DNA of 64,000 bases from positions 72,249 through 136,248 of the forward strand of contig JAQBPO010000064.1 of NCBI GenBank assembly GCA_028287465.1, in the 5' to 3' direction. Below are positions 4,593 to 39,006 of the stretch, piece after piece. Numbering within the stretch: position 1 is the stretch's first letter; the number at the start of each line of letters is the position of its first letter. A program made the translations under genes and the position numbers. Origin of the DNA: Fibrobacterota bacterium (lineage in GTDB: Bacteria; Fibrobacterota; Fibrobacteria; UBA11236). The notes below the pieces were generated by a model. It did not search any database, was not told the DNA's origin, and worked only from the letters and a program-made list of their open reading frames with translations.

Positions 4593-4835
4593 ATGAGGAT
4601 TATAGCACCCGGCTTTTTTATTTGTCCATGCGCGGGGACGGTTTATTTGTCCGCTGGCATTGGTCCGGCATCAAAAACCCATAAGCGCATGAACCCGAAT
4701 AATGTTTAGAATCCAGGGTTTTTTTGGGAGGGTAGGGAGTATCTTTTCTTGCATTCCTGCGCCTGGGGGGCCGTTCGCGGGTTCGGGGGGTTGTGCCGTG
4801 GTTTCCACCATGCGTACCAAGAGGGGAAAAGGGTA

Positions 4836-6851
4836 ATGATGGCTCGAATCGGAGCTTTGCGTCCTGGCTTTACCGCGCTGACCGCCGCCGCGGCCGCCGG
4901 TTTCATCTCCGCGGCCGCGTTATGGCTGTCGGCTTGCAACGTTTTCGCGCCCTTGGCCGCGGACGGCGACAAGGATCTCACCTATCGGGGCCTTATCCTC
5001 AAAGGCAACGCCGCCATCAACGAGGAGGAATACGCGGATGCGGAAACCTACTTCGCCCGCGCCAAGGCCCTGAATCCCAAGGGTTCCGAAGCCTACCTCT
5101 ACCATTCCAAGGCCCTGGTAAGCCTTTACAAGATCGATTACAACTCCCTGAACGACGAGTTCAACGCCCGACGTAACAAGGACGGCACCGGCAAGAAGGG
5201 GATCCCGTTCGTCGATTCCGGCACCACCCTCGCCAAGATCGACAGCACCTATTATCCGGTGGCGCAGTCGGTGGAGAACCTGGAACACATCCTCCGCCAT
5301 TCCCGGGATACGGTCCTGATCCCCGGAGGCTATAAGCTCCTTCCGGACGGGGACACGGCCGGCGACGGGAAGGTATCGGAAGGCGTGGCCCGGCTCGACC
5401 TGGGCATCCTGCAGACCATCAAAGGCATGCTCGGGCCCCTCGACCTGGACGGCAACAACCATATCGACGACGCCTGCGGCCTCAACCTCTGCCCCGACAA
5501 AGGCCCCTGCCTCCAGAGCGCCGCCTACCTGAAGAAATGCAAGGAGGGCCTTGCCAGCGAGATCAACGGCTTCGAACGCTTCAAGCAACTGACGCGCAGC
5601 CTCGACATCAACGACCTCGACACCAAGGACCTCCGGGCCCGCAACGTCTCCAGCAACCCCAACGACATCAACGATTTCCTGGACAAGATGCAAGGGCCGA
5701 TCGCATCCTCGAGCTTCAACCTGGATTCCGTGACCGGAGCCATGAACAGCCACGGCGAGGCCGCCCTGAGCGGCCAGTTGTCCGAGATCGTCTCGAACGT
5801 CTCGGATCTGAGCAACTTCCTCTCCTACATGCGCTTCAACGACAACCTGGACAACGATTACGACGACCAGGACAGCTCGGGCAAGGGAACGCGCATGGTC
5901 TGGCATGACTACGACAAGGACGGAGGCATCCACTACGACTACGACGACGATGCGGTGACCCTGGCGGGATATACCGGGACCCCCCGCAATAACGAAGCCC
6001 ACAATATCGGGCACCCCCTGCATCGCATGCTCCACCCGGAGCTATACGTCAGATTCACGGACAGCTCCTGGGCCAAACGCCCCATCAGCAAGGACGCCAG
6101 CAAGAACGCCCGCGGCGCGACCATGATCAAGCATTGCCAGGATGCGGCCAAGACCCTGAACGTGGACGGCAAGGTGACGGACATCGTCATCGCCAACCTC
6201 GTCGCCAAGACCTGCTCGACCTACACCTCCATCCTCAAGTCCACGGTCCGGCCCCCGGCCCGGAGCGACTGGCAGTCCGGCACCTTCGGCGTCGACGAGG
6301 AGATGATCGACGAACGCGACAACGATTACGACGGCATCAAGGACGAGGACGCGCGCAACGCCCCGGGTATGGACGATGACGACGACGCCCTGCTTTCGGT
6401 CTCCATGATAGGGACCTCGCCGGCCCCCATGGTCTGGGCCGACGTTCCCGGGCACGCCAACAAATGCCCTGAGATCGACACCACCAAGGCCATGCTCCCC
6501 CCGCCCTTCGCCAAGCAGTTCTGCATCGGCTCCCTGGAGCATCGCATCTACCTGGCCCAGCACGGCGGCCGGGATACCCTGGCCGTCTACTACTCGCGGT
6601 TCCTGGGGGAGGGACCCAGCAAGAATTGCCTCGAGGACTTCGACAAGCTCGACCCCGCCTTCAAGGCCGCGGTGGGCCTGAAAACCTCTACCGATGACGC
6701 CGTGCTCGACGCCTGCCAATTCAAGCATATCTGGAAGGCCCCCAGGCCCGTCCATTCCGAATGGACCTCGGGCGTGTTCGGCATCGATGAGGAACTTCCG
6801 GACGGGGTCGATAACGACGGCGACGGCTGGATTGACGAGGACCTGAAATGA
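4836..6851 (+). CDS. secreted lipoprotein: TPR-like N-region, Cys-rich middle, duplicated Asp-rich calcium-binding-like (thrombospondin type-3-like) repeats
   Basis: Signal peptide with lipobox ...ALWLSAC. Start chosen at the MMARIG ATG (4836), which lies inside the longer ORF. Internal repeat W.SG.FG.DEE..D..DND.DG..DED occurs twice. There are many Cys residues. Confidence 0.5.
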   Translation: MMARIGALRPGFTALTAAAAAGFISAAALWLSACNVFAPLAADGDKDLTYRGLILKGNAAINEEEYADAETYFARAKALNPKGSEAYLYHSKALVSLYKIDYNSLNDEFNARRNKDGTGKKGIPFVDSGTTLAKIDSTYYPVAQSVENLEHILRHSRDTVLIPGGYKLLPDGDTAGDGKVSEGVARLDLGILQTIKGMLGPLDLDGNNHIDDACGLNLCPDKGPCLQSAAYLKKCKEGLASEINGFERFKQLTRSLDINDLDTKDLRARNVSSNPNDINDFLDKMQGPIASSSFNLDSVTGAMNSHGEAALSGQLSEIVSNVSDLSNFLSYMRFNDNLDNDYDDQDSSGKGTRMVWHDYDKDGGIHYDYDDDAVTLAGYTGTPRNNEAHNIGHPLHRMLHPELYVRFTDSSWAKRPISKDASKNARGATMIKHCQDAAKTLNVDGKVTDIVIANLVAKTCSTYTSILKSTVRPPARSDWQSGTFGVDEEMIDERDNDYDGIKDEDARNAPGMDDDDDALLSVSMIGTSPAPMVWADVPGHANKCPEIDTTKAMLPPPFAKQFCIGSLEHRIYLAQHGGRDTLAVYYSRFLGEGPSKNCLEDFDKLDPAFKAAVGLKTSTDDAVLDACQFKHIWKAPRPVHSEWTSGVFGIDEELPDGVDNDGDGWIDEDLK

Positions 6852-7975
6852 CGCGCAATACCGTTCTTTTCGCCGCCACCCTGGCCTTGGCCGCCGCGGG
6901 CCCCGCGAGCGTTTCCGCCGAGGCCGGCCCCCAGTTCCGCGACACCAAGTCGCAATCCCTGGGGCGCACCGGAGTCGCTTCTTCCCACGGCGGTACGGCC
7001 CTGTTCCTGAATCCCGCGGCCCTGGCGCGCTCGCAAGGCGGAGAGCTGGGCATGTCCATGGACCTGGGGGTGAATTCGGTCCTGGTGGACTATGCGTCCT
7101 GGGCCGCCGACAACTACAAGTACCTCAACAATATGGACTCCCTGCTGACCAAGATCGGCCCGGTGGACAACAAGTGGGCCCCCTTCTCCCAGTCGCTCAT
7201 GCTCTACGGCAATTGGGAAGGCGTCGGGTTCAGCGTCCTGTCGGATACGCGCTACAACCTCACCTTGGGCAAGGCTGTGGTGACGCCGGTGCCCGGCATC
7301 GGCGCCCTATCGGACCTGGTCCTGACGGCCGGCCGCGGGTTCAACGCCGAAGACGGCTACCGGTTCGGCTTCGCCCTCAAGTACATCTACCGGCTGCGCT
7401 TCGAGGATCGCCTGGTGGGCACCACGGACGAGGAGTTCTACAAGGTGAAGGAGTCCTGGGAAAAGCCGGACGCGGGATGGTCGGACAAGCTGGCCAAGAT
7501 CCAGGTGGCCGGCGATATCGCCGAAACCAAGCAGGGCGTGGGCGCCAATCTCGGCGCGGAAAAGGACATCAACGCGGATTGGACCGCCGGCCTCTCCCTC
7601 CTGGACTTCCCCACCGTCATGAACCAGCGGTTCACCCGGCCCGAAATCAATCTCGGCCTGGCGTTCCATCGCGACGTGGACTGGGTCCCGGACCTGGACA
7701 ACAAGTTGCTCGTGAACCTCGATTGGCAGCGCTTCCTGATCCCGGGCACGCCCTGGTTCAAGCAGCTTAAGGCCGGCGTGGCCATGGAAGGCTGGATGAA
7801 GAAGCGTCCGGTCAGCTATATCGGTGTCGGCCTGAACGACGGCTATCCCACCTTCGGCGTCCGCTTCGGCTATATCGTCTACCTGAGCTACGTCTACGTG
7901 GCGGAGGAAATCGGCACCTACCCCGGCCAGGAGAAGCTGAGCTTCCACAAGCTCGTCCTGCAAGCCGAAATTTAA
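6848..7975 (+). CDS. putative outer-membrane beta-barrel protein (signal peptide, alternating amphipathic strands, C-terminal aromatic-X pattern)
   Basis: N-terminus MTRNTVLFAATLALAAAGPASVSA. The start overlaps the upstream lipoprotein stop (ATGA), so the two are translationally coupled. The composition is Gly/Tyr/Asn-rich and beta-strand-like. Confidence 0.4.
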   Translation: MTRNTVLFAATLALAAAGPASVSAEAGPQFRDTKSQSLGRTGVASSHGGTALFLNPAALARSQGGELGMSMDLGVNSVLVDYASWAADNYKYLNNMDSLLTKIGPVDNKWAPFSQSLMLYGNWEGVGFSVLSDTRYNLTLGKAVVTPVPGIGALSDLVLTAGRGFNAEDGYRFGFALKYIYRLRFEDRLVGTTDEEFYKVKESWEKPDAGWSDKLAKIQVAGDIAETKQGVGANLGAEKDINADWTAGLSLLDFPTVMNQRFTRPEINLGLAFHRDVDWVPDLDNKLLVNLDWQRFLIPGTPWFKQLKAGVAMEGWMKKRPVSYIGVGLNDGYPTFGVRFGYIVYLSYVYVAEEIGTYPGQEKLSFHKLVLQAEI

Positions 7976-8016
7976 GGGGAACGACGGGACGAGGGGAAGG
8001 ACCCTCGGCGGCGGGC

Positions 8017-8862
8017 CTATCCGCGGTTCAGCTTTTCCAGCAGGGCGGAATGGGTAACGCCGTTGGAACCGATCAGGCCCTTGGTAAGGACGGGGTTGGG
8101 CGAACGGAAGTCGAGCCGCTTGCCTTCCAGATCCGTCAGCCTGCCGCCGGCCTCTTCCAGGATCAGCTGGGTGGCGCCCAGATCCCATAGGCACATCGGG
8201 TTTTGCGGAGGGGACACGAAGGCCGTATAGGCCCCGCGCGCGACCTCGTTGATCTTGAGGGAACCGTTCATGCGATGGAAGGGCGGATTGCCCAGCTTGC
8301 GCAGCAGATCGGTCAGCCCCGGGGATTGGCGGCCATGGGACGTGATCAGGCTGGGCCGCGTTTCCTGGGATACCTTCACGGGAATCACCTGCACCATTTC
8401 CGGTTCTTCGGCCACGAAGGCGCGATAGGCCCCTTCGCCCTTCACGGCGAAATACACTTCGCCCAATTCCGGCTTGTAGGTCATTCCCACCTCCGGCCGC
8501 CCTTCGAAGGCGAGCGCCAGGATGCAGCCGTAATGCTGGCCGTTGCGGATGAAGCTCGAGGTGGAGTCCAGGGGATCGAGGATCCAGCAGCGCGTGGCCT
8601 CATGCCACGGGGCCGCTTCCGGATTCAAATGCCAGGTTTCCTCGTTGAGGATGGCGTCCCCGGGGAACTGGCGTCCTATCTCGCCGTCCAGGTAGGCGGC
8701 CACCTGATGATCGATCTGGGTCACGATGGATCGGTCCGGCTTGTAGGAGACCTCGGTGCCGGCGAGCCGTCCGGCCAGGAGTTGCTTCCCGGCCTCCAGG
8801 ATGAGGCGGTACATGAACTCGAGTTCGGAGGCGTAACGGGAAGCGGCGAAAACCTTCTGCAT
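8017..8862 (-). CDS. inositol-monophosphatase family protein (CysQ-like 3'(2'),5'-bisphosphate nucleotidase)
   Basis: The WILDPLDST metal-binding motif and a C-terminal WD...A..I..EAGG motif. Confidence 0.6.
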   Translation of the reverse strand: MQKVFAASRYASELEFMYRLILEAGKQLLAGRLAGTEVSYKPDRSIVTQIDHQVAAYLDGEIGRQFPGDAILNEETWHLNPEAAPWHEATRCWILDPLDSTSSFIRNGQHYGCILALAFEGRPEVGMTYKPELGEVYFAVKGEGAYRAFVAEEPEMVQVIPVKVSQETRPSLITSHGRQSPGLTDLLRKLGNPPFHRMNGSLKINEVARGAYTAFVSPPQNPMCLWDLGATQLILEEAGGRLTDLEGKRLDFRSPNPVLTKGLIGSNGVTHSALLEKLNRG

Positions 8863-8897
8863 CGATTCCTAAGATAGCATTTGCGGAAGTGCGGCGC

Positions 8898-10004
8898 TTA
8901 TTCCGGAGAGGCGGCCGCGCCTGCGGGCGCAGACGATATCGACCCCGCCTGCGCGGAAACCGCGGGCTTGGGGACGAAGGGCGACCTTGCGGGACCCCTG
9001 CGGAGCCGGCCGAGCAAATCGAACGGGTCCTCCCAGATCAAAGCCCTGCCCGCGCCATCGGGGATCCCTGACCCCTTCGGTCCGCGGATGCCCAGGGAAG
9101 CGGTCAGGAAGCCCCGCTCTTTCATCCAGGCCGCGCAGAGGCCGGGCCACGTGGCCAGTTCGGGGAGATCGGGCGCGCCCGCCGCGCCGTTCGCCAGGCC
9201 GAAACCGTGGGGCCCATGATCGTACAGCTTCATCTGCGCGGGGACGCCCGCCTTCACCAGGGAATCGTAATAGATGATGGAATTGTCGACGAGCACCGTC
9301 CCATCGTCCTTGGCGTGCACCAGGAATGCTGGCGGGGTGGAGACATCCACGTGTTTCTCATTGGACAGGAAGCGCATGTCTTCCACCGAAGGATTGTCCC
9401 CCAGAAGGCTCTTGCGGGATCCGATGTGGGCGAACGGCCCCTCCATGGTGATCACGGGATAGCCCAGGATCTGGAACCAGGGCTTGCAGGATTGGCGATC
9501 GACCGAGTCCGCGGCCAGGGGATTGCCCGCGTCGTAATGCGTGGCCACCGTGGAAGCCAGGTGCCCGCCCGCGGAGAAGCCTACTATGCCTATCCGGTCC
9601 GGTTGGATCTTGTAGCGCTTGGCATTGGCCCGCGCCCAGCGCATGGCCCTCTTGGCGTCGTTCATCTCGATGGGGTGGTGATAAGGCGTGACGCGGTACT
9701 TGAGCACGAAGGCGGAGACGCCCAGGCCGTTCAGCCACTTGGCGACCTGGATGCCTTCCTTGTCCGTGGCCAGATGGTCGTACCCGCCGCCGGGGCAGAT
9801 GACCGCGGAGGTGCCGGTGGAGGGATTGACGCTCGTCGGGTAGAAGGTAAGGGAGGGTTTGGAGGCGGCCGTGGTGTCCGTGGCGCCCGGAGCGCCCTTC
9901 GGCCAAAGCGGTTCCGCGGTCTGACCCGACGCCGTTCCGGTCATAGTGGCCAGGAAAGCGGAAAGCAAGAACGCGCCAAAGGCTTTCGGCCGGTAAGCTG
10001 ACAC
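8898..10004 (-). CDS. secreted alpha/beta-hydrolase esterase (acetyl-esterase / carbohydrate-esterase-like), paralog 1
   Basis: Signal peptide. Oxyanion motif PGGGY, nucleophile elbow GFSAGGHLAS, then HAKDD and HGFGL acid/His motifs. Confidence 0.65.
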   Translation of the reverse strand: MSAYRPKAFGAFLLSAFLATMTGTASGQTAEPLWPKGAPGATDTTAASKPSLTFYPTSVNPSTGTSAVICPGGGYDHLATDKEGIQVAKWLNGLGVSAFVLKYRVTPYHHPIEMNDAKRAMRWARANAKRYKIQPDRIGIVGFSAGGHLASTVATHYDAGNPLAADSVDRQSCKPWFQILGYPVITMEGPFAHIGSRKSLLGDNPSVEDMRFLSNEKHVDVSTPPAFLVHAKDDGTVLVDNSIIYYDSLVKAGVPAQMKLYDHGPHGFGLANGAAGAPDLPELATWPGLCAAWMKERGFLTASLGIRGPKGSGIPDGAGRALIWEDPFDLLGRLRRGPARSPFVPKPAVSAQAGSISSAPAGAAASPE

Positions 10005-10090
10005 CCTGGTATTTCCCTTCCCCGGCCTAAAGATATACCGGAATCCGGCCCCGCGTGAGCGGCATTTCCGGGGAAAAGCGAGTTCCGGGG

Positions 10091-11131
10091 TCAGCGCTGG
10101 CGCCCTGCGGCATCAATGAAGCCCCATTCCCCCGTCTCCGCGCGGAATCCGAAACCCCTGACCGCGTCCTGGTCCCGGCGGGCCTCAAGGGAGGCCATGG
10201 GCCGGCGCAGGGAGGTGGCCGTCTTGAAGAAGCCTTGCTTGTCCATCCAGGCGGCGGCCAGGGCCGGCCAGGTGGCCAGGATGGGATCGTTGGGAGCCCC
10301 GCCCACGCCGTCCGCCAGGCCGAAACCATGCCCGCCCTTTTCGTACAGCTTGAGCTCGGCGGCCACGCCGCGCCGCTTGAGGGAATCGTAATAGGCCTGG
10401 GAGTTCCGCACCGGGACAGCATTGTCGTCCTTGGCGTGCAGGAGGAATGCCGGGGGTGTCTTGGACGTTACCTGTTTCTCGTTGGACAGGGAGTCGATCA
10501 GGATCTGGGACGGCGCGTCCCCCAGGAGGGCCAGGCGCGATCCGCCGTGGGTGAAGGCCGCGTCCATGGTGATGACCGGATAGCCCAGCAGGGACCAATC
10601 GGGCCGGCATCCTTGGCGATCGATGCTGTCGGCGGCCGCGGCGTTCCCGGAATCGTAATGCGTGGATACCGTGGACGCGAGGTGGCCCCCGGCGGAGAAA
10701 CCCAGCACCCCCACGCGCTTGGGATCGATGCCATACTGCCGTGCATGGGACCTGACCCAGCGCACCGCGCGCTGCCCGTCCCACATCTCGATGGGATGGC
10801 GGTATCCGGCGGAGCCCAGGCGGTACTTGACCACGAAGGCGGAGACGCCCAGGGTGTTGAGCCATTTGGCGGGTTGCAGGCCTTCATGATCCATGGCGAG
10901 GCCCGTATAGCCTCCGCCGGGGAAAACGACCACGGCGGCCCCGTTCCCCTTCCCCGCCGCTACGGGATATGGGGTGATGGTGGGCTTGTCCACGGCGGCC
11001 GTGCCTTTGGCGCCGGGCGCCCCTCCGGGCCAGAGCAGGGCTTCCACCTGGGCCGTCGCCGCCAAAGGCAGGATCAGGAAGGTGGAAATACAGAAACGGA
11101 TCAGACCGGTACGGACGCGTGCTGGCAACAT
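10091..11131 (-). CDS. secreted alpha/beta-hydrolase esterase, paralog 2
   Basis: About 55-60% identical to paralog 1 with the same motifs (GFSAGGHLAS, HAKDD, HGFGL). Start placed at the internal M before signal peptide MLPARVRTGLIRFCISTFLILPLAATAQ. The longer ORF N-terminus is Arg/Pro-rich. Confidence 0.6.
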   Translation of the reverse strand: MLPARVRTGLIRFCISTFLILPLAATAQVEALLWPGGAPGAKGTAAVDKPTITPYPVAAGKGNGAAVVVFPGGGYTGLAMDHEGLQPAKWLNTLGVSAFVVKYRLGSAGYRHPIEMWDGQRAVRWVRSHARQYGIDPKRVGVLGFSAGGHLASTVSTHYDSGNAAAADSIDRQGCRPDWSLLGYPVITMDAAFTHGGSRLALLGDAPSQILIDSLSNEKQVTSKTPPAFLLHAKDDNAVPVRNSQAYYDSLKRRGVAAELKLYEKGGHGFGLADGVGGAPNDPILATWPALAAAWMDKQGFFKTATSLRRPMASLEARRDQDAVRGFGFRAETGEWGFIDAAGRQR

Positions 11132-11381
11132 TTCCCCCCCATTTCGGCCGGCCGGAACCCTCCGGGGCCATGACCGGAAACCACGCATCGGTGGTTTCGC
11201 GGGCCCCGGGTCACGGCTTTGCCGGCCATGCCTGTCTTGAAAAGGTAAGCAAGGTTGGGGAAAATCACCGCTAACCATTCAGTAAAAACGGCAAAACCGC
11301 CTACCCGGAGTTAAATTAGGTCTTTTCTCCTTGAACCGGGGCTATGGTAAACATGGTATTGGACATCTCCCGTAGAGGATA

Positions 11382-11897
11382 ATGGGTCTGGGAACCATCA
11401 AGGCGGACATGGGAATAGCGGCTCAAAAGGGATTCACCTTTCTCGAGGTCATGGTCGTCGTGATCGTGATGGGCCTGCTCGCGCTCCTGGCCTTCAATCC
11501 CATGCGGAACTATCTGCATCGGATGGAATTCAAGAACTGCAGCCAGAACGTCAAGCATCTGATCCAGACCGCGCAGTCCAAGGCCATGGGCAATCCCAAT
11601 GTCCATATCGGGGTCTTTTTCGACCGGTCGACCACCCCGCATAAGGCATTCCTGTTCCAGGACAAACTCAACCCGGCCTCTTACCGCTATGACGGCTCCG
11701 GGGATCCCGCCTACCTGCAGCCGGAGAAACTCAAGGCGGGAATGTCCTTCAAGACCATACCGGGGTATCCGCCCGAAATCGTCTTCCGGGGGGACGGCTC
11801 GGCCTGGAAGAGCATGAAGATCATCCTCACCGACGGTACCCTGCAGGATACCCTGGACATCCTTGCCAGCACGGGCCGGGTACGGGTGGGCAAATGA
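11382..11897 (+). CDS. type IV pilin-like pseudopilin (GspH/FimT-like) with prepilin cleavage/methylation N-terminus
   Basis: Leader ...AQKG|FTFLEVMVVVIVMGLLA with Glu at +5. An AGAGGA Shine-Dalgarno lies 5 nt upstream of the ATG at 11382. Its stop overlaps the next start (ATGA). Confidence 0.6.
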   Translation: MGLGTIKADMGIAAQKGFTFLEVMVVVIVMGLLALLAFNPMRNYLHRMEFKNCSQNVKHLIQTAQSKAMGNPNVHIGVFFDRSTTPHKAFLFQDKLNPASYRYDGSGDPAYLQPEKLKAGMSFKTIPGYPPEIVFRGDGSAWKSMKIILTDGTLQDTLDILASTGRVRVGK

Positions 11898-12313
11898 TCG
11901 CCGGGCCCGTCCCATCCGGCCGCGGCGGCGGGCAGTCCGGACTCACCCTGATGGAGATCATGATCGCCATCGTGGTCATCGCCATAGGCGTGGGCGTATT
12001 CGTCACCATGCAGAAGAACTCGGGCAGCAACCTGGCCGGGAACAGCAAGATGATGCGGGCGGGGCAGCTGGTGGAAAAGCACGTAGAGGCCATGCGGATC
12101 GGCATCGCGCGGGACACGGCGGGCAATTGGCCGCCCAACGACACCTCCTACACCGAAGCCGGGCTCAAGGTGGAGCGGAGGATCTCGCAGGCGGTATCGC
12201 CCAAGACCCTGACGGTCCTCTCCAATGTCCGCAAGGTGGATATCATCGTTTCCTGGGGCAAGTCGCACCAGGACAGCCTGGACGTAACGACCTATGTATC
12301 GCGCAGATTCTGA
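11894..12313 (+). CDS. pseudopilin (GspI/PilV-like), prepilin-type N-terminus
   Basis: GQSG|LTLMEIMIAIVVIAIGV with Glu at +5. It is translationally coupled to both neighbours. Confidence 0.55.
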   Translation: MIAGPVPSGRGGGQSGLTLMEIMIAIVVIAIGVGVFVTMQKNSGSNLAGNSKMMRAGQLVEKHVEAMRIGIARDTAGNWPPNDTSYTEAGLKVERRISQAVSPKTLTVLSNVRKVDIIVSWGKSHQDSLDVTTYVSRRF

Positions 12314-13097
12314 ACCGCAAAGGGGATTCACCCTCGTGGAAATCACGGTGGCCCTGGTGGCCTCCGGGATCCTCATCGCCGGGCTCGCGCGCTTTTTCCG
12401 GGACTTCAACCATTCCTACAACAGCCAGGAACAGGTGAGCGATCGCGACCTCAACGCCCACTACGCGGTGCGCCGCCTGAGCGAGACCCTGATGTCGGCC
12501 GGAGCCAACCTGCCCAGCGAGGATTGGAGCATCCTCAACCTCCCGGAAGGCAGCCCGGGGCACCGGTTGCGCCTTTCGGTCAATCCGCGCGGGGGCGTGC
12601 AATACATGGCGGCTCCCCTGGCGGGAGTTCTCGAGGTCACGGTCGATGACGCCAAGGGTTTCGCCGAGGCCACGGCCATCCTCGCGGATCCCCAGGCCGA
12701 TGGCGTACCGACCTTCAAGGTTGAAATCGATCAGGCCTACAACAGCGACGGGTTCGTCAACGGTTTCAAGGTCACGGGCGCCAGCGCCGTCCTGCGGCTC
12801 TCGTCCACCCTTACCCTCGAGGCGGGCGACGCCGTCTATGCCTACGCCGTCGAGGATTACCGGCTCCTGGACGGCAACCTGATGCTGAACGACATGGTGC
12901 TCGCGGAGAACATCCAGAACCTCACCTTCACCGCCTATACGACCGGCCAATCGACGACCACCCAATGGTCCGCCATGCGCTCGGCCAAGATCCAGATCAC
13001 CGCCCGCACCCGCAACCGGGATCCGGCCCTGACCGACAATGACGGCTACCGTCTCATCGATCTTTCGATGGACGTGCTCCTGAGGAACCGCCTATGA
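12294..13097 (+). CDS. pseudopilin (PilW/GspJ-like), prepilin-type N-terminus
   Basis: QRG|FTLVEITVALVASGILIAG. Size and position fit the third minor pilin. Confidence 0.55.
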   Translation: MYRADSEPQRGFTLVEITVALVASGILIAGLARFFRDFNHSYNSQEQVSDRDLNAHYAVRRLSETLMSAGANLPSEDWSILNLPEGSPGHRLRLSVNPRGGVQYMAAPLAGVLEVTVDDAKGFAEATAILADPQADGVPTFKVEIDQAYNSDGFVNGFKVTGASAVLRLSSTLTLEAGDAVYAYAVEDYRLLDGNLMLNDMVLAENIQNLTFTAYTTGQSTTTQWSAMRSAKIQITARTRNRDPALTDNDGYRLIDLSMDVLLRNRL

Positions 13098-14851
13098 TGG
13101 ATCCGCGACCGTCTCCGCAACCTTCCGGGAACCTGCCCGCGGCCCTTCCCGGCCGCGGCCAGTCCGGGTTCATCCTCATCTTCTCCATCCTTATGATGCT
13201 CGGGGTATCCACCCTCGCCATCGGCATGGTCTACAACGCCCATCATGGCCAGGTTACGGCGCAGAACTACAAGAACCGCCTGCGCGCCTTCTACGCGGCG
13301 GACGGCATGCGCGCCCTGTTGGCGCAGGAGGTCATGGACGGCAACGTCAAGCGTTACATCGACACCTCCCTATCGGGCGAGATCGAAGGCGAAGTCTGGG
13401 ACGGGGCCGGAGGGGGGATCGCGGCCTTGAAATCGGCCATGAGCGTCCGCGGCCCGGATCGCAAGGTGACTTCGCCCTACCTTGGATCCAACTACAAGAA
13501 CGTCACCAACTACGGGATACGCTGGCGCGGTTACCTCATCCCTCCGGCCACCGGGTCATACACCTTCTTCGTCCGCGCGGATGATGAGGGGGAATTCTAC
13601 CTGAGCAGCGACGAGAGTCCCGCCAACCTTTCCGGGGCACCCATCGCCAGAATCGGATCCTGGGTCTTCCAATGGCCTACCTCCGGATCCGGGGTTTCCC
13701 CATCCGTATCCCTCAAGATCGGTGTGCGGTACTATTTCGAATTCCTCCACTCCCAGGGCATCGGAGCGGGGTTCGGCCAGGTCGGCTGGCGCGGCCCCAA
13801 GTACATGACCGAGCGCCCCGTCCCGGGAAAGCGCTTGGCCGCCTTCGGATCGAAAAAGGAGAAGTGGGACACCGTCAAGGTCGGCATGGGCAAGGTCAAA
13901 TACGCTCTCTCCGAGGCGGGGCCCCTGGTCTACACCCTGAACACGGAAGCCATCATGGGAGGCAAGGGCGATACCACCTTCCGCTCCCCGCTGACCCAGA
14001 CCCTCAGCATGCGCGGGGACAATCCCGCGCCGCCGGAAACCCTATGGCAGCGCGTGATCTTCTACGACTTCCATTCGGACCGGAGCAATCCGGATTTCGA
14101 TCGCGGCGGCCCGGATTTCTTCGAGAACAAGGTCAGCCCGGGCATGGTGAAGACCAAAGGTCTCCGCTACACCACGGAGAATGCATCGTTCTTCGGCCTG
14201 GACTCCATCGGCAAGCCGATGCTGGGCCCCTCGCCCGATTTCAATTGCGGCATCGACCGCTGGTTCACCGAATGGAAGCCGGGCTGGTTCGGCACCTACG
14301 CATACGCGGGCGGAGGGGGCGACTGCACCGAGTCCAATCCCGGCCATGACCAGACTTACAGGAACGTCGTGATACGGGACTCGCTCCCCTTCATCCAACG
14401 CAAGGACCTGGGCGCCAACGCCTACCAGTTCAAGCGGTTCGGCACCGATGAGGAGGCCGCTTTCACGCCCCTGGACGGGCGCGGCCTGGGTAACGAGGGC
14501 GCTACGGACAAGCTCGGGACGCCGCGCAACTATTCCTTCTGCATGGAGCTCCACTCCCAGTTCGAGCACACTTCGGGCATGAATTTCGAATTCAACGGGG
14601 ACGATGACGTCTGGCTCTACATCAACGATTCCCTCGTGATGGATCTCGGCTTCGTGCACAAATCCACCTACGGAATCGTGGCCCTGGACGATCTGCCCCT
14701 GACCTTCGGCGAAACCTATCCCCTGGATTTCTTCTATTGCGAAAGGCAGCGGTTCGGCTCGAGCATCGATCTGATCACCAACCTGCCCGTGCTCCTGAAA
14801 GCGGGCAAGCCGACTTCCAGCTGGAAGCGGGACTATGGCAACCTGGAATAG
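13094..14851 (+). CDS. GspK/PilX-like minor pilin fused to PA14 and fibro-slime domains (candidate pilus-tip carbohydrate adhesin)
   Basis: N-terminus GQSG|FILIFSILMMLGVSTLAIG with no Glu at +5, which is typical of GspK/PilX. PA14 segment YGIRWRGYLIPPATGSYTFFVRADDEGEFYLS. C-terminal fibro-slime signature GDDDVWLYINDSLVMDLGFVH...YPLDFFYCERQ. Confidence 0.6.
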   Translation: MMDPRPSPQPSGNLPAALPGRGQSGFILIFSILMMLGVSTLAIGMVYNAHHGQVTAQNYKNRLRAFYAADGMRALLAQEVMDGNVKRYIDTSLSGEIEGEVWDGAGGGIAALKSAMSVRGPDRKVTSPYLGSNYKNVTNYGIRWRGYLIPPATGSYTFFVRADDEGEFYLSSDESPANLSGAPIARIGSWVFQWPTSGSGVSPSVSLKIGVRYYFEFLHSQGIGAGFGQVGWRGPKYMTERPVPGKRLAAFGSKKEKWDTVKVGMGKVKYALSEAGPLVYTLNTEAIMGGKGDTTFRSPLTQTLSMRGDNPAPPETLWQRVIFYDFHSDRSNPDFDRGGPDFFENKVSPGMVKTKGLRYTTENASFFGLDSIGKPMLGPSPDFNCGIDRWFTEWKPGWFGTYAYAGGGGDCTESNPGHDQTYRNVVIRDSLPFIQRKDLGANAYQFKRFGTDEEAAFTPLDGRGLGNEGATDKLGTPRNYSFCMELHSQFEHTSGMNFEFNGDDDVWLYINDSLVMDLGFVHKSTYGIVALDDLPLTFGETYPLDFFYCERQRFGSSIDLITNLPVLLKAGKPTSSWKRDYGNLE

Positions 14852-14925
14852 ACCGTGTCCCGCCCGGGACTATGGCAACCTGGAATAGACCTCGTCCCGC
14901 CCGGGACCATGGGAATCTTGGGTAG
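14815..14925 (+). repeat. about 37-bp direct tandem repeat x3; copy 1 is the last 37 nt of the pilin-adhesin gene including its TAG
   Basis: ...gggactatggcaacctggaatag / accgtgtcccgcccgggactatggcaacctggaatag / acctcgtcccgcccgggaccatgggaatcttgggtag. Each copy ends in TAG. Confidence 0.8.
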
Positions 14926-14931
14926 CGGAAC

Positions 14932-15954
14932 TCACTTCGCATTTTGACTTCTCCCGCCGAAGGCCGGAGAATCGGGACTGACGGCGGGCCTTCCCAGGAT
15001 CCCCCGGGCTTCCATCCATTTCGCGCATTGCGACGGCCAGGTGGACAGCTGCTCCATGCCCGGTTCCCCGTTCCGCTCCGCCGCCAGGCCGAAAGCATGG
15101 CCCCCCTGCACGAAGGCCAGGAACTCCACGGGTACCTTGGCCCGCCGCAACGCTTCCGCATAGGCCTGGCTGTTGGCGATGGCCACGACGGGATCGGCCT
15201 CGGCATGCACCAGGAAGGCCGGCGGCGCGCCCCCTTCGACCTGGGTTTCAAGGGACAAATAGGACAGGGTGGCGGCATCGGGCGAGCGCCCCAGCAGATT
15301 GATGCGCGAGGCGCGGTGGGTGAAGGGCGCCTCCATGGAGATGACCGGGTAGATCAGGATCTGGAAATCCGGACGGCAGGAAACGCGCTCGACCGGATCC
15401 GCCGCTGCCGGATCGCCTCCGTCATTGTGGGTCGCCACGGTCGCCGTCAGATGGCCGCCCGCGGAAAACCCCAGCATGCCTATCCGGCGGGGATCGAGAT
15501 GGAAGCGCGCGGCATTGGCCCGCACCCAGCGCACCGCCCTTTGCCCATCCTCCATCTGCGCGGGATGGTGGAACGCCGGTCCCAAGCGGTATTCGAGCAG
15601 GAAGGCATGGATCCCCAGGGACCGCAGCCACAGGGAGGGCTCCACCCCCTCCTTCTTGCGGGCGAGCATGCCATAGGCGCCGCCGGGGCATACCACCATG
15701 GCGGCTCCGTTGGCGGAGTCCCTGACGGGAGCGTATAGGGTGAGGAATGGCGCGGATCGGGCAGAATCCTTCCCGATGAAGGCCACCTGCGGCTCCTTGG
15801 ACGCGGCCGGATCGATGCGGATGCTCCGGGGCCGGGTGGCCCCGGCGCCGTGGGCCGAAAGGACGATGGCCAGGATTCCGGCGATGCCGGAAAGCGGCGG
15901 CCGGCGCAACGCCGGGATTCCGGCCCGCGCGGGGTAACGTCGGGGGGACGGCAC
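14932..15954 (-). CDS. secreted alpha/beta-hydrolase esterase, paralog 3
   Basis: Motifs PGGAY, GFSAGGHLTAT, HAEAD and HAFGL. It is convergent with the pilin operon. Confidence 0.6.
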   Translation of the reverse strand: MPSPRRYPARAGIPALRRPPLSGIAGILAIVLSAHGAGATRPRSIRIDPAASKEPQVAFIGKDSARSAPFLTLYAPVRDSANGAAMVVCPGGAYGMLARKKEGVEPSLWLRSLGIHAFLLEYRLGPAFHHPAQMEDGQRAVRWVRANAARFHLDPRRIGMLGFSAGGHLTATVATHNDGGDPAAADPVERVSCRPDFQILIYPVISMEAPFTHRASRINLLGRSPDAATLSYLSLETQVEGGAPPAFLVHAEADPVVAIANSQAYAEALRRAKVPVEFLAFVQGGHAFGLAAERNGEPGMEQLSTWPSQCAKWMEARGILGRPAVSPDSPAFGGRSQNAK

Positions 15955-15967
15955 CTTCTTCAGGGTT

Positions 15968-16411
15968 TCAGCGGGTGAACTTCCAGGCCAGGCCCAGGAT
16001 CGCGCCCACGACGATCAGGAGGAGGAGGATCTTGACGGCCATGGGCATGCCGCCCTTGGTTTCCTCGTTGAGCCAATCGGGAGCGGTGGCTGGAGCGTCG
16101 GAGGCCGGGGCCTCCCCTTCGCCCGGCGCGCCTTCGGCTCCGGAGGCGGCTTGGCCTTCGGCGGCCGCCGGCGCATCGGCGCCCGCATAACCCGCCATCT
16201 CCTGGGGATAGGCCGTGGTCTCGGATCCCGGAGCGCGATCGAACGCGCCTTCCGCGGGCGCGTCCAAGCCGTCCATGCCGCGGCGCTTTCCTTCGTTCAG
16301 GATCAGCTTGACGGCCACTTCGGGACCGGTGGCGCGGCTCGACGAGAGCATTTGCATCAGCTTCGCGTCGGAAACCGTGGAGAGGCGTTTTTCGAATTCA
16401 TCCAGTTTCAT
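15968..16411 (-). CDS. hypothetical tail-anchored membrane protein with an Ala/Pro/Glu-rich low-complexity linker
   Basis: C-terminal TM AVKILLLLIVVGAILGLAW, with no N-terminal signal peptide. Confidence 0.4.
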   Translation of the reverse strand: MKLDEFEKRLSTVSDAKLMQMLSSSRATGPEVAVKLILNEGKRRGMDGLDAPAEGAFDRAPGSETTAYPQEMAGYAGADAPAAAEGQAASGAEGAPGEGEAPASDAPATAPDWLNEETKGGMPMAVKILLLLIVVGAILGLAWKFTR

Positions 16412-16573
16412 CGACCAGGCCTTTCAATGGCGTTCCCGCCGCGGCCGCCCATTCCTGGGAGTCGCGCCGGAAACAAGGCCGCCGGTTCAAAGGGGGCTCC
16501 TTGGAGCCCTCGCCGGATCGGCCATTGGCCTAGATTGTAGCAAACAAATTATGCCCGCTGCAAAGGGGTCTTT

Positions 16574-18361
16574 TTATCGTAAACCCAGGCCCCGTATCTC
16601 GTTGCCGCGGAGGAAGCCGAACTTGGCCACCTTGAGCCGCTTTCCCCGCTCCACGTTGTCGCGCGGATCCTGCCCGTAGGAGAATTCCGCCCGCATGATA
16701 TAGACCCCGGTGGAAATGAGATTTCCGTCATGGGAGACGGGAAACCAGGCGAACCGAAGCAGAAACGCGCGGGTTTCCGGATCCCGCGCGAGCTTGCCCG
16801 ATAGCAGGTCCTCGCGGGTGACGGTGAGTTCGGTCCGGTTCACGAACTGGCCCAGGTTGTCGAAGACGGCCAGCTTCAGGGTCGCCGGATGGGAGAGCTT
16901 GAAGCCGAAAACGGCAACCCCGGGATTCCCTTCCGCCCCGGTATTGCCCCGGATCCAATCCCCCGCGGATTCGGGATGCAGGGGGACATAGGTCTTGGCC
17001 TCCCCTTGCGCATCCTTGCTCGTCAGGAGCACGAAGGGATCCTTGACCTGGGCGGGCTTCACGGGCGTGCCCGAGGTTACCCCCTTCTCCGCGACCAGTT
17101 CCCCGATGACGATATCCGGCAACCGCGTTTCCACCGGGCGCCATGGATTGGCGGGATCGGCGGGTTTGCCCTGGGCGTCTTTCACCTGGGAAACCCCGGC
17201 GATGGCCACCTTGTAGCCGTCCCCGGGGACATCGGGGGATCCGGGCGCGATGGTGAAGGTCCACTGCCGGGAGAACCCGTTGACGGCGGAATCGGCGCGG
17301 ACGGCGGACATATCCACCCTCACCTCATTGCCGGAGGGATCGAGGAACTTGAGCACGGAAGGCGCGTCCACCTTCACCGGTCCGGAGAATAGCACCACCA
17401 GCTGGACCCCCGGGATCTCGTTCAGGTTCGTATCCGCCACCACCTTCCAGGCCCGGGAAATCTCCGGCCCCACGACCGCCGGCGGATCAAGCGGCTTGTC
17501 GGTGTTCTTGAGTTCAAGCGAGGTCGTGATGGTCAGGCGGGAAGCCTCGACGCGGCGCTCGGCGAAAAAGAAATCGAGATAATAGGGCTTCCCGTCCGCC
17601 AGTCCCAGGGTGTCCAGATTGACCTCGGCGAATTCCGCCGCATGCAGGCCCCCCAGATCGATCACGAGTTTATCGTTTATGAATACCCACACGTCATCAT
17701 CCCCGCGGAAGGCGAATTGCTGGCCGGACCCCTGCTTGTACGTGAACCGGGAGTGGAACTCGAAGGTGAACCCGAAATTGTGCTTGCCGAGATCGACTCC
17801 CTCGGAAATACCGGTCTGCCGGTGGCCGAAGGTCGTCGTCACGGATGGGACCTGGGGCTTCAGGGAAGGGACCTTGTCGTCATCAAGGGGGAAGAATTCC
17901 TGGTTGTCGTACTTGTAGACGTTGCCGTCCTTGGTGAAGTTGACATCCAGGAAAAAGGCCCGGTTGATGTCCGGGGAACGGGTGGTGTACCACTCGTTGA
18001 ACCGGCTGCGGAAGCAATTGGGAGGGGTATCGTACCCGGGCTTGAGAGCGGGCCCGGCCTCGTCGCGGTCGTAGGGGATCAGTCCCGCGAGCCTGTCCGG
18101 ATTGGCGTCCGCTGAGGAAAGCGCGGTCTGCACGGCCCCCTTGGCCGCGGAAGGCCTGTCGAAACAGCCCCAGCCTTCCCAGCCGCCGGGATTCCATGTT
18201 TGATTGAAATCCGGATGCCCGCCGGTCGTCGTCTTGGGCAGCAATTCCTGGAAATCCCGGGCGATGCCCGTCAGATTCAATTGGGCCTGCGCCGCCAGCG
18301 CGGCCCCCAGCAGAAATACCCCGGCTTTTCCAATCCACGCAAACCATATGCTTCCCCGCAT
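16574..18361 (-). CDS. secreted fibro-slime domain protein with a C-terminal sorting-type domain
   Basis: Signal peptide. Fibro-slime core FRGDDDVWVFINDKLVIDLGGLHAAEF...YYLDFFFAERR. C-terminus LKLAVFDNLGQFVN...ISTGVYIMRAEF resembles T9SS CTDs. Confidence 0.6.
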   Translation of the reverse strand: MRGSIWFAWIGKAGVFLLGAALAAQAQLNLTGIARDFQELLPKTTTGGHPDFNQTWNPGGWEGWGCFDRPSAAKGAVQTALSSADANPDRLAGLIPYDRDEAGPALKPGYDTPPNCFRSRFNEWYTTRSPDINRAFFLDVNFTKDGNVYKYDNQEFFPLDDDKVPSLKPQVPSVTTTFGHRQTGISEGVDLGKHNFGFTFEFHSRFTYKQGSGQQFAFRGDDDVWVFINDKLVIDLGGLHAAEFAEVNLDTLGLADGKPYYLDFFFAERRVEASRLTITTSLELKNTDKPLDPPAVVGPEISRAWKVVADTNLNEIPGVQLVVLFSGPVKVDAPSVLKFLDPSGNEVRVDMSAVRADSAVNGFSRQWTFTIAPGSPDVPGDGYKVAIAGVSQVKDAQGKPADPANPWRPVETRLPDIVIGELVAEKGVTSGTPVKPAQVKDPFVLLTSKDAQGEAKTYVPLHPESAGDWIRGNTGAEGNPGVAVFGFKLSHPATLKLAVFDNLGQFVNRTELTVTREDLLSGKLARDPETRAFLLRFAWFPVSHDGNLISTGVYIMRAEFSYGQDPRDNVERGKRLKVAKFGFLRGNEIRGLGLR

Positions 18362-18510
18362 ACGCCCCCCTTATTGATAGTCCATTCCGAATCCGCGTCG
18401 AGCCGATCCGCGGGGACTTGCCTGCCCCCGCCATCGCGCTTACCGTCCACAATTGCTAATTTACGGGCCTGTCGATGCACATCTCTCGTTTACAACCAAA
18501 GGAGCGTCCC

Positions 18511-19662
<1,152 letters not shown>

Positions 19663-36922: not shown

Positions 36923-37035
36923 ACCGCAACCTTTCCCAAAAAACCAAAGCTTTTAGTCAGATCTTTGTCATATCATAAGGGTGATTGGGGGATTGGCGTC
37001 CCCTGGCCCGCCGCCCGGGTACGCCAGACAATCTT

Positions 37036-38862
37036 ATGGTGATCAGCCCTTCGCGAACCGTCCTTCGGCCCGTCCTTCTCACCGCCTTCTACCTGTTTTG
37101 CCCAAATCTCTTTTGCGCTAAACCCGCCGCGGCTGCCGAGGACTACGCCGCATGGCCCAACGCCACCGACGTCATCCTGAACACCTCCGCGACCGGCGCC
37201 GGCGTGGCCGGCACCGTCGCCAATTTCCCGGTGCTGGTACGGCTCACCTCCGCCAACTTCCCCTTTTCCCAGGCCGGCGGGAAAGGCCGGGACATCCGTT
37301 TCTCGAAACAGGATCGCACCCCGCTCGATTACGAGATCGAACGCTGGGACTCGACCCGCGCCCAGGCCGAGATCTGGGTCAGGCTGGACGAGGTGCGCGG
37401 GAACGCCGCGGGACAGATCGTGCGGATGTACTGGGGAAACCCGTCGGCCGCGGACAGTTCCGACGCGGCGGCCGTCTTCCGGGGGGCTGACGGCTATGTG
37501 GCCGCCTGGCACTTGGGGGTTCCCGGGACCGCGGCGCGCCCGAACGCGGTGGCGGGAGGCAATCCGGCGGCGCCCAACTCGTACGATGGGGACGAGAATT
37601 CCGCCGGCCTCATCGCCGGCGCGGACAGCCTGGACGGAACCGCTACCGGGGATTTCCTGGACATCGGCGACGGTTATACGGAGTTCACCGCCGGATTCAC
37701 CTATTCGGCCTGGGTCTATCCCACCGCCATGAAACGATGGTCGCACGTCCTCGACCTGGGGAACGGCACCGGCAACGACAACATCATCGTGAACCGGGTG
37801 GACACCACCGCGGCCATGGGATTCCACAATTGGACCGGGACCAACTCCTACGCCAAGGAGGTGCCCAACCAATGGGCGCTCAATCAATGGCAGTTCATCA
37901 CGGTCACCATGACGGGGAAGAACGTGCGCATGTACAAGAACGGCGCGCAAATCCTGGCGGACACCCTTCCCGGCGCCATGACCGGCGTGAACCGCACGAC
38001 CAACTACCTGGGCAAATCCAACTGGGCCGCGGACGATTTCTTCCAGGGCAAGCTGGACGAACCCGTTCTGGCCAAGACCGTGCGCAGCGCCGACTGGATC
38101 AAGCTGAGCTACCAGAACCAGCGCGCCGCCCAGACCCTGGTGACGGTGGTGAAGCCGGTGCAGTGCGCGGCCAGGATAAGCGTCCCCCCCGATACCACGG
38201 TGCCGGAAGGCGGTTCACTTACCCTGAACGCCGGCGTCGAATGCGCGGCGGGCTTCTCCTGGTCCGTGATCTCCGGGCCGGCGCCGCGCATCCTGGATCC
38301 GGAAACCAAATCCCTGGCCGTAGCGATCCCCCGCGTGGCCGCCGACACCGTCATCGTGTACCGCCTGACCGCGGAATTCTCCGACTCCACCAGGACCCGG
38401 GACGTGCGCGTGCGCATCAAGGAATCCATCCCGGATCCGATCTTCACCCTTCCCGCCATCCCATCCTGGAGCGGCAAGGAAGCGATTGCCTACCGGCCCG
38501 CCATCTCCAACCTGGCCGCCATCAAGGCCAGCCGGGATTCGGCGCTGCATTGGACGTGGAGTTTCGCCGGACCGGCCGTGGATACGTCCTGGCTGGAGGA
38601 CGGCATGACCTTGAAAAGCGCGGAGGGCGCGGGCGCATTGCAGATCGGGTTGTGCCTGGACAACGGCGGGCCGATCGTTTGCAGGAACGCCGCTTTGACC
38701 ATCACCGGTTCCGCGGCCTCCATGCTCCAGGCCCAATCGACTCCCCAAGGCCAAATAACCAAAACGGACCCCGGCCGTGACGCCCTCGGAAGGGCGGCGG
38801 ACGGGCCGATTACGCCTCGCAAGGCCGGCCGGCCGGGAATTGCGCGTTACCCCCGAAAATAA
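37036..38862 (+). CDS. secreted DUF2341 + LamG (concanavalin-A-like) protein, MshQ-like, with a shared C-terminal module; paralog A
   Basis: DUF2341-like FPVLVRLTSANFPFSQAGGKGRDIRFS...YEIERWD...AEIWVRL. LamG-like FTYSAWVYPTA...NQWQFITVTMTGKNVRMYKNGAQI...FQGKLDEP. Start placed at MVISPSRTVLRPVLLTAFYLFCP (signal peptide). Confidence 0.55.
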   Translation: MVISPSRTVLRPVLLTAFYLFCPNLFCAKPAAAAEDYAAWPNATDVILNTSATGAGVAGTVANFPVLVRLTSANFPFSQAGGKGRDIRFSKQDRTPLDYEIERWDSTRAQAEIWVRLDEVRGNAAGQIVRMYWGNPSAADSSDAAAVFRGADGYVAAWHLGVPGTAARPNAVAGGNPAAPNSYDGDENSAGLIAGADSLDGTATGDFLDIGDGYTEFTAGFTYSAWVYPTAMKRWSHVLDLGNGTGNDNIIVNRVDTTAAMGFHNWTGTNSYAKEVPNQWALNQWQFITVTMTGKNVRMYKNGAQILADTLPGAMTGVNRTTNYLGKSNWAADDFFQGKLDEPVLAKTVRSADWIKLSYQNQRAAQTLVTVVKPVQCAARISVPPDTTVPEGGSLTLNAGVECAAGFSWSVISGPAPRILDPETKSLAVAIPRVAADTVIVYRLTAEFSDSTRTRDVRVRIKESIPDPIFTLPAIPSWSGKEAIAYRPAISNLAAIKASRDSALHWTWSFAGPAVDTSWLEDGMTLKSAEGAGALQIGLCLDNGGPIVCRNAALTITGSAASMLQAQSTPQGQITKTDPGRDALGRAADGPITPRKAGRPGIARYPRK

Positions 38863-39006
38863 ATCCAGCCTCCGCCCAAGATCCTAAAACGATTTCCCGC
38901 CTCCGGGACGTATCGTATTGGCGGGGGGATGACGTTCCGGCTACCGCCGGGGCGGCGTCATCAAGATCACGTGGCAAACAACCTGGCTCGCGATTTCCGT
39001 CGTACC

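Follow-up and report, generated by a model that had tools for sequence, protein, structure and literature searches.

BD-FAE is a carbohydrate esterase that lies outside the classified families, and enzymes of its type sit in xylan utilisation loci (PMC8165983). CLH10, whose structure has been solved (6a6o), is a bifunctional acetyl-ester/xyloside hydrolase of Caldicellulosiruptor that is active on both p-nitrophenyl (pNP)-acetate and pNP-xyloside. Fibro-slime proteins, type IV pilins and surface hydrolases of Fibrobacter succinogenes have been implicated in the attachment to plant fibre and its breakdown (PMC6851124; PMC4704652). A basic terminal domain (BTD, also Fpm-1) has long been known on Fibrobacter glycanases and has been proposed as a signal for secretion by the type IX system (T9SS) (PMC6851124; PMC4704652). 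Here we describe three paralogous esterase genes, E1, E2 and E3, that bracket a cassette of pilin and adhesin genes in an uncultured soil or groundwater member of the Fibrobacterota. They lie in a stretch of 64,000 nucleotides (the window) from the 159-kb contig JAQBPO010000064.1 of a metagenome-assembled genome.

We consider it probable that E1-E3 are exported Ser-Asp-His esterases that deacylate glycans, that they stem from an old tandem triplication within the Fibrobacterota, that the array was split when neighbouring blocks of genes changed places and the cassette came to lie inside it, and that the C-terminal tails of E1 and E2, set against E3, reflect a divergence in localisation. A first-pass annotation of the window had instead seen in the bracketing a functional island for binding and deacetylating plant polysaccharide.

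Family, fold and catalytic triad of the esterases

The three genes are present as open reading frames on the minus strand, where the first-pass annotation had placed them, and are the only copies in the window:

8898..10004, minus strand: E1, a 368-aa esterase with Ser144 (9573-9575), Asp234 (9303-9305) and His266 (9207-9209), the oxyanion motif PGGGY and a signal-peptide-like N-terminus
10091..11131, minus strand: E2, a 346-aa esterase with Ser146 (10694-10696), Asp236 (10424-10426) and His268 (10328-10330)
14932..15954, minus strand: E3, a 340-aa esterase with Ser164 (15463-15465), Asp254 (15193-15195) and His286 (15097-15099) and a 20-aa tail

Database gene calls agree for E2 (346 aa) and E3 (340 aa), and E2 is 100% identical to an NCBI protein named 'axeA 7'. 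The NCBI call for E1 is 20 aa shorter than ours; the GTG start at 10004 is backed by the hydrophobic N-termini of E1 orthologues. The identity of 55-60% first reported for the trio applies to E1 and E2 (57%) but not to the pairs E1/E3 and E2/E3, which are ~50% identical each (MAFFT: 56% and 46%). The motifs first quoted for all three also need correcting in E3, where three of them were misquoted and read GFSAGGHLTA, HAEAD and HAFGL.

All three proteins are alpha/beta hydrolases, as proposed, and score above the Pfam cut-offs of both BD-FAE (PF20434; 70.6, 74.5 and 85.3 bits, gathering cut-off 26.8) and Abhydrolase_3 (PF07859; 63.7-84.4 bits, cut-off 25). The Ser of GFSAGGH, the second Asp of (D)DxxV and the His of GxH(G/A)F were invariant in 143/143 aligned sequences including E1-E3, as were the two Gly and the Tyr of PGG(G/A)Y. 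We assigned the catalytic triad from this conservation and by analogy with published triads, rather than from measured geometry. The first Asp of HAKDD was also considered as the catalytic acid, in which case E3 would be defective, but this residue varies. As the second Asp, that of D-x-x-V, is kept in all 143 sequences, the triad of E3 is intact despite its HAEAD sequence.

The closest solved structure to E2 was 6a6o (E-value 1.4e-64), followed by the acetyl xylan esterase BTAxe1 (7dwc; 2e-25). Structure modelling was applied to E2, and the AlphaFold2 model (66-sequence alignment) had a predicted local distance difference test (pLDDT) score of >94 for residues 31-300. When this model was used as a Foldseek query, 6a6o was again the top match, with a template modelling (TM) score of 0.92, a root-mean-square deviation of 2.1 Å and 42% identity. 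Cest-2923, BTAxe1, Thermogutta Est2 and BD-FAE came next, and the top matches were all esterases of the alpha/beta-hydrolase fold. Three motifs are common to CLH10 and E2: the nucleophile elbow GFSAGGH, the acid motif DxxV and the histidine motif HGxG. In the alignment, the 283-aa 6a6o protein starts ~40 residues before the part matched by E2 and ends 2 residues after it; it is therefore without a long N-terminal leader and without a C-terminal tail. In contrast, the window esterases have signal-peptide-like N-termini, and E1 and E2 have basic tails. The xylan-active BD-FAE (PF20434; 6xyc/6tkx) and BTAxe1 (7dwc) of Bacteroidota have the fold and the Ser-Asp-His triad in common with the window proteins, although BD-FAE itself is distant from them (18-19% identity, with a partial sequence match at E 2e-9). 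The window genes lie outside any SusC/SusD polysaccharide utilisation locus.

The best NCBIfam profiles for E1-E3 were PaeX (NF041902), a pectin acetylesterase of Dickeya, and AxeA1 (NF042968), an acetylxylan esterase, with E-values of 1e-45 to 1e-65 over most of the catalytic domain. The scores fell far short of the equivalog cut-offs, at 191-221 bits against 550 for PaeX and 152-200 bits against 700 for AxeA1, of which profile positions 31-264 of 459 were matched. E1-E3 are therefore relatives of these proteins and not the same enzymes. The description of the trio as carbohydrate-esterase-like is borne out by the nearest characterised relatives, which are acetyl and feruloyl esterases acting on xylan, xylosides or pectin (PMC8165983). 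E1-E3 are further members of the known esterase group to which BD-FAE, BTAxe1, PaeX, AxeA1 and CLH10 belong and, judged by their homology, most likely cleave acetyl or similar short acyl groups from polysaccharides or oligosaccharides.

It is also conceivable that the three proteins are general carboxylesterases, arylesterases or lipases, or that they act on the organism's own O-acetylated exopolysaccharide or peptidoglycan, and so are unrelated to plant polysaccharide. The structural neighbours include Cest-2923, Thermogutta Est2 and the lp_1002 arylesterase, and the matches to CLH10, PaeX and AxeA1 are of homology only, below equivalog cut-offs. Soil Acidobacteriota and Planctomycetota commonly have homologues, whose gene contexts vary, and the 31 window proteins scanned contained no glycoside hydrolase (GH). 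However, among characterised relatives an acetyl-ester/xyloside hydrolase is the closest by far (1e-64); the second hit, at 2e-25, is BTAxe1, itself an acetyl xylan esterase from Bacteroides. The family profiles that match best are those of pectin and xylan acetylesterases, and enzymes of the BD-FAE type are found in loci for xylan utilisation (PMC8165983). Moreover, an esterase of the Fibrobacterota clade to which E1-E3 belong is encoded among GH78-like (weak Pfam hits), GH2 and SASA genes. We regard a general esterase role as improbable and retain glycan deacylation as the preferred reading.

The clade member just mentioned lies in a glycan-degradation-like cluster of another Fibrobacterota locus (L152 in our numbering, 5201-18839; GCA_043732185.1). 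In this cluster the GH78-like protein has an FlgD_ig tail and a DUF2341/LamG/SASA protein has a Por_Secre_tail; the GH2 gene and a gene for a second DUF2341/LamG protein are also present. A gene for a TonB-dependent receptor is found just past the cluster, at the end of the locus. The L152 context is a point in support of the esterase clade as such having a role on carbohydrates.

A signal peptide had been reported on each esterase, and we agree: the N-termini consist of basic residues, a hydrophobic stretch of ~14 residues and then a small-x-small site, ASG|Q, ATA|Q or AGA|T. E1-E3 are thus probably exported, by the Sec route. In the E2 model the N-terminal segment was a helix of low confidence that lay outside the fold. 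A LWPxGAPGA motif directly follows the signal peptide in E1, E2 and the four E3 orthologues inspected (from the related loci L002, L003, L004 and L006), and the window E3 (15700-15830) is without it. A frameshift was considered as the cause, but the motif is absent from the other two frames as well. The missing motif therefore reflects divergence of the window E3.

Phylogeny and gene order of the esterase array

In neighbour-joining trees, all of the Fibrobacterota copies fell into one group, apart from the homologues of Acidobacteriota, Planctomycetota, Bacteroidota and others. The bootstrap values for the orthologue groups were 100% for E1, 100% for E3 and 80% for E2. These groups lie within the Fibrobacterota clade; the duplications are therefore old and took place before the divergence of all the relatives sampled. 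A scan of metagenome contigs yielded only two further close relatives, both short (L088 and L089).

The esterase genes of the window are accompanied by the following genes:

15968..16411, minus strand: h147, encoding 147 aa with a hydrophobic C-terminal segment, 13 bp upstream of E3
8017..8862, minus strand: a gene of the inositol-monophosphatase family, 35 bp downstream of E1, which marks the array's conserved end
11382..14851, plus strand: the pilin-adhesin cassette, between E2 and E3 and on the strand opposite to the esterases
11382-11897, 11894-12313 and 12294-13097, plus strand: the three prepilin-type genes of the cassette, of which the first is pil171
13094-14851, plus strand: the PA14/fibro-slime protein of the cassette, 585 aa, with a PA14 domain and a fibro-slime domain

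The layout was described correctly in the first-pass annotation, with E2 and E1 in tandem and divergent from pil171 (11382), and E3 convergent with the PA14/fibro-slime gene that ends at 14851. In eight related genomes we found a common backbone, g21396 - g19715 - PPIase - (PA14_595) - h147 - E3 ... E2 - (E1) - inositol phosphatase - OMP375 - g4749, on which the esterases and the cassette are arranged in several ways:

Window, L004, L150 (=L088) and L151: E3 - cassette on the opposite strand - E2 - E1
L002 and L003: E3 - cassette - E2, with E1 missing
L006: unbroken tandem E3 - E2 - E1, with no cassette
L153: unbroken trio, with the cassette between OMP375 and inositol phosphatase, one gene outside the array
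P0016 contig: a single esterase, with the cassette absent

The first-pass annotation had named a lack of conservation in any relative as evidence that would count against its island. The arrangement recurs in five other genomes (L002, L003, L004, L150/L088 and L151), so this objection does not arise. What does not stand is a local expansion 'around' the adhesin, since the trio is an ancient tandem array that is contiguous in L006 and in the outgroup L153.

A tree of five backbone proteins (1750 aligned positions, 200 bootstraps) gave the order (L153,(L006,(L004,(window,(L002,(L151,L003)))))), with 100% bootstrap support for the clade in which the array is split. With the tree rooted on the most distant genome, the simplest history would run as follows. 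Two tandem duplications within the Fibrobacterota, before the sampled species diverged, would have given E1, E2 and E3 in a co-oriented h147-E3-E2-E1-inositol phosphatase array, and the ancestor would have had the pilin/PA14 cassette beside this array, as in L153. The L006 lineage would have lost the cassette by deletion. Two neighbouring blocks, inositol phosphatase-E1-E2 and the cassette, would have traded places in the window's clade, leaving the cassette between E3 and E2. E1 was lost twice, and both losses would have followed the block swap. We also considered a recent insertion of the cassette into the array, but the outgroup L153 already has the cassette one gene outside the array. Given that adjacency in the outgroup, a block swap and one loss fit better than an insertion.

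These arrangements bear directly on the proposed island, in which a pilus-tip PA14/fibro-slime adhesin would bind plant polysaccharide, the flanking esterases would deacetylate it and selection would keep the module together. Part of the proposal holds: the proteins are carbohydrate-esterase-like and predicted to be exported, and the layout is recurrent. The cassette and the esterases are neighbours in seven genomes (the window, L002, L003, L004, L150 and L151, and, one gene removed, L153) across ~25-35% protein divergence. There is also the precedent of fibro-slime proteins, pilins and hydrolases on plant fibre in F. succinogenes (PMC6851124; PMC4704652), an analogy that makes the idea plausible without testing it. 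However, the cassette splits the array only in one derived clade, and its position in L153 is unlike that in the window's clade. Orientation argues against co-transcription of the esterases (minus strand) with the cassette (plus strand), and each of the two has an upstream block that is conserved on its own. Nor are the two linked wherever either occurs. The cassette is missing from L006, which keeps the trio, and from the P0016 contig, which has a single esterase; in L153 it lies outside the array. No esterase is found near the paralogous cassettes of L155 and of L154, a locus from the sample that also gave the window. Pilins are absent from more distant esterase loci of the Fibrobacterota (L009, L010, L034, L061 and L152), and in a comparison of 140-odd esterase-anchored loci from many phyla the pilin genes were matched only where the locus was that of a close relative with this same backbone. 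The two losses of E1 also speak against selection for an intact module. Finally, the whole 20-kb neighbourhood is collinear, including housekeeping genes such as the PPIase and inositol phosphatase genes, so the conserved adjacency says little, being no stronger than background synteny. The bracketing would be the product of a local rearrangement and is therefore not evidence of a purpose-built plant-polysaccharide island. We hold the island to be possible but do not favour it, and rate its chances as slight. An old tandem array split by a block swap remains our preferred account of the locus.

C-terminal tails of E1 and E2

A tail of 30-50 aa had been attributed to each esterase. Counted beyond the last helix, this applies to E2 (44 aa) but not to E1 (68 aa) or E3 (20 aa). 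The tails of E1 and E2 are located as follows:

8901..9104, minus strand: E1 C-terminal tail, 68 aa, isoelectric point (pI) 10.7, with DLLGR at 9006-9020 and then LRR
10094..10225, minus strand: E2 C-terminal tail, 44 aa, pI 11.2, predicted to be disordered, ending ...GFIDAAGRQR, with DAAGR at 10100-10114

Tails of the E1/E2 type have a variable linker rich in Pro, Ala and Arg, followed by D-[A/F]-[L/A]-G-R and basic residues, as in ...GFIDAAGRQR (E2) and ...FDLLGRLRR (E1). The motif is present in the E1- and E2-type proteins of L002, L003, L004, L006, L150, L151 and L153 and in the L009 esterases, and overall, of 108 tailed esterases listed, about 90 carry it; among the esterases of the Fibrobacterota clade its share is about 90%. 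In the E3 group the D-x-x-G-R motif is absent in all of the genomes with E3 (7/7). Of the homologues listed, those placed outside the Fibrobacterota clade are tail-less. Where tails are present they are strongly basic, with a median pI of 11.4 across 105 tails, 88% of them above 9 (E1, 10.7; E2, 11.2). In the AlphaFold2 model, the E2 tail had pLDDT values of 44-59 and almost no secondary structure.

The motif is not confined to esterases. It lies near the C-terminus in 102/120 homologues of the unrelated DUF2341/LamG family, where the residue before it is mostly Arg and in some cases aromatic, as in YDARGRRL. Inside proteins, its frequency was 0.001-0.004 per 60 residues. Two tandem DUF2341 + Laminin_G_3 paralogues in the window, at 36985-38862 and 38929-40833 (both plus strand), carry the motif. 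It was also seen in a basic tail within the last 60 residues of a CBM4_9 protein (L002, 16184-16900) and of two uncharacterised proteins (L009, 5667-7241; L155, 10112-12505).

We compared these tails with two described types of C-terminal signal. In motif B of T9SS C-terminal domains (CTDs) the Gly is invariant, the Tyr is strongly conserved and, in short CTDs, there is a basic residue (PMC11969387). The D-A-x-G-R of the tails with its basic residue, together with the aromatic residue sometimes found before it in the DUF2341/LamG proteins, recalls this motif. Unlike T9SS CTDs, which are folded as a beta-sheet or beta-sandwich, the E1/E2-type tails are 30-65 aa long and predicted to be disordered. 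Nine tails searched against Pfam gave no match at E-values up to 10, including to FlgD_ig, CHU_C and Por_Secre_tail (PF18962), and a control tail (protein 47936-49006) matched FlgD_ig at 2.4e-7 and CHU_C at 0.013. A full-length NCBIfam scan of E1-E3 listed no TIGR04183 at E-values up to 0.01. Of the T9SS CTD motifs, the GxY motif D and the terminal motif E are absent from the esterase tails, in which only the motif-B-like D-A-x-G-R was found, and E2 ends two residues after its DAAGR. Because no domain model matches, motifs D and E are missing and E2 ends so early, we describe the tail as sorting-tag-like and do not file it as a T9SS CTD.

The second comparison was with the BTD/Fpm-1 of F. succinogenes glycanases, which is likewise C-terminal, strongly basic and found on exported enzymes of the same phylum across unrelated families. 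The E1 and E2 tails are C-terminal segments with a pI above 9 on predicted exported enzymes, which is how the BTD is defined (PMC6851124); the likeness is one of description and pI.

The tail is probably a sorting tag. With E1 and E2 tailed and E3 without the motif, the paralogues probably differ in destination (surface or secreted as opposed to periplasmic) as well as in substrate. More tentatively, and as a possibility that we think rather doubtful for now, the basic disordered D-[A/F]-x-G-R tail could be a sorting or anchoring signal, minimal and so far undescribed, of Fibrobacterota from soil and groundwater; the tail-less E3 would then be a differently localised copy. On this reading the tail may be an extreme reduction of a T9SS CTD to motif B.

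Several points weigh against the reading as a whole, from the enzymes to their tails. For the history, all of the trees are neighbour-joining trees, and in the esterase bootstrap tree the deepest nodes above 80% are the orthologue groups, besides a node joining four outgroup sequences. The node that joins L006 to the split-array clade in the backbone tree has 29.5% support, and the root of that tree was chosen by distance, as the most distant genome. For the function, the PaeX and AxeA1 matches lie far below the equivalog cut-offs and the window proteins scanned include no glycoside hydrolase; the substrate is not settled because the fold also spans arylesterases and lipases (Cest-2923, Est2). 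For localisation, the signal peptides of E1-E3 were judged by eye only, and the tails match no Pfam model.

Neighbouring genes and wider meaning

Two features flank the cassette on its E2 and E3 sides:

11132..11381, no strand assigned: E2/pil171 divergent intergenic region, with conserved boxes
14828..14912, plus strand: 37-bp tandem duplication, 2.3 copies with 93% matches, at the cassette/E3 junction

Close upstream of pil171, the intergenic region has a conserved box, TAGAGGATAAT; a -10-like box related to it, CGTATAAT, is found upstream of the cassette at its L153 position. A separate conserved block, AAAATAAGCA, lies nearer E2. Promoter and terminator scans gave counts not above those of shuffled sequence. 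The 37-bp duplication copies the end of the PA14/fibro-slime gene, its final seven codons and the stop. Mobile-element borders of the cassette were also sought; there were no flanking direct or inverted repeats, and only the N-terminal segments shared by the prepilin genes and the 37-bp duplication were found.

The cassette resembles the minor-pilin operons of type IV pili (fimU/pilVWX-type genes and a large tip protein) in its order of genes: three short ones of the prepilin type, then one for a large protein whose N-terminus has a hydrophobic segment. It differs from them in that its large protein bears PA14 and fibro-slime domains. In L003 (4766-8219) the PA14/fibro-slime gene of the cassette is duplicated, with a full copy followed by a second copy split into two open reading frames.

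Three fibro-slime/PA14 proteins are encoded in the 64 kb, at 13094-14851 (plus strand), 16574-18361 (minus strand) and 47936-49006 (minus strand). The first follows the three prepilin genes and has a pilin-like hydrophobic N-terminus. The second, of 595 aa, was found only in the window, L004 and, in part, L089. The third, of 356 aa, has a C-terminal domain of the FlgD_ig/CHU_C type (T9SS-like), and T9SS-type cargo therefore exist in this genome.

No family match was obtained for h147 in profile scans. Wherever the DNA of a relative was examined, the outgroup L153 included, an h147 homologue lies directly ahead of E3, and in L089 one precedes an E2-like esterase. It is likely that h147 is co-transcribed with E3 as a partner.

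A conserved pair of genes, 4749-6851 and 6848-7975 (both plus strand), also flanks the esterase array. The first encodes a 700-aa protein with repeated D-x-D-x-D-G acidic motifs. The second encodes a 375-aa outer-membrane-like protein, for which there was no Pfam family and no meaningful PDB match. We considered this protein as a PorV, but the PorV/BamG-like NCBIfam hints were weak (E 1e-3; 18.5 bits, with the cut-off at 90). A gene pair of the 4749/6848 type is followed directly by the pilin cassette in L153, on the same strand, and this placement may be the older arrangement.

The gene cluster itself is ordinary, and adds three members to a known esterase group. A bracketing that comes from a block swap inside a tandem array of paralogues is a caution for annotation by guilt-by-association. 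The most interesting by-product is the conserved basic D-A-x-G-R tail on unrelated exported families of uncultured Fibrobacterota. If the tail is indeed a sorting tag, it would aid the prediction of surface and secreted proteins in a phylum known to degrade fibre, and would bear on how short a T9SS-type signal can become. The triplet, with its tail-less E3, would then be a natural test case.

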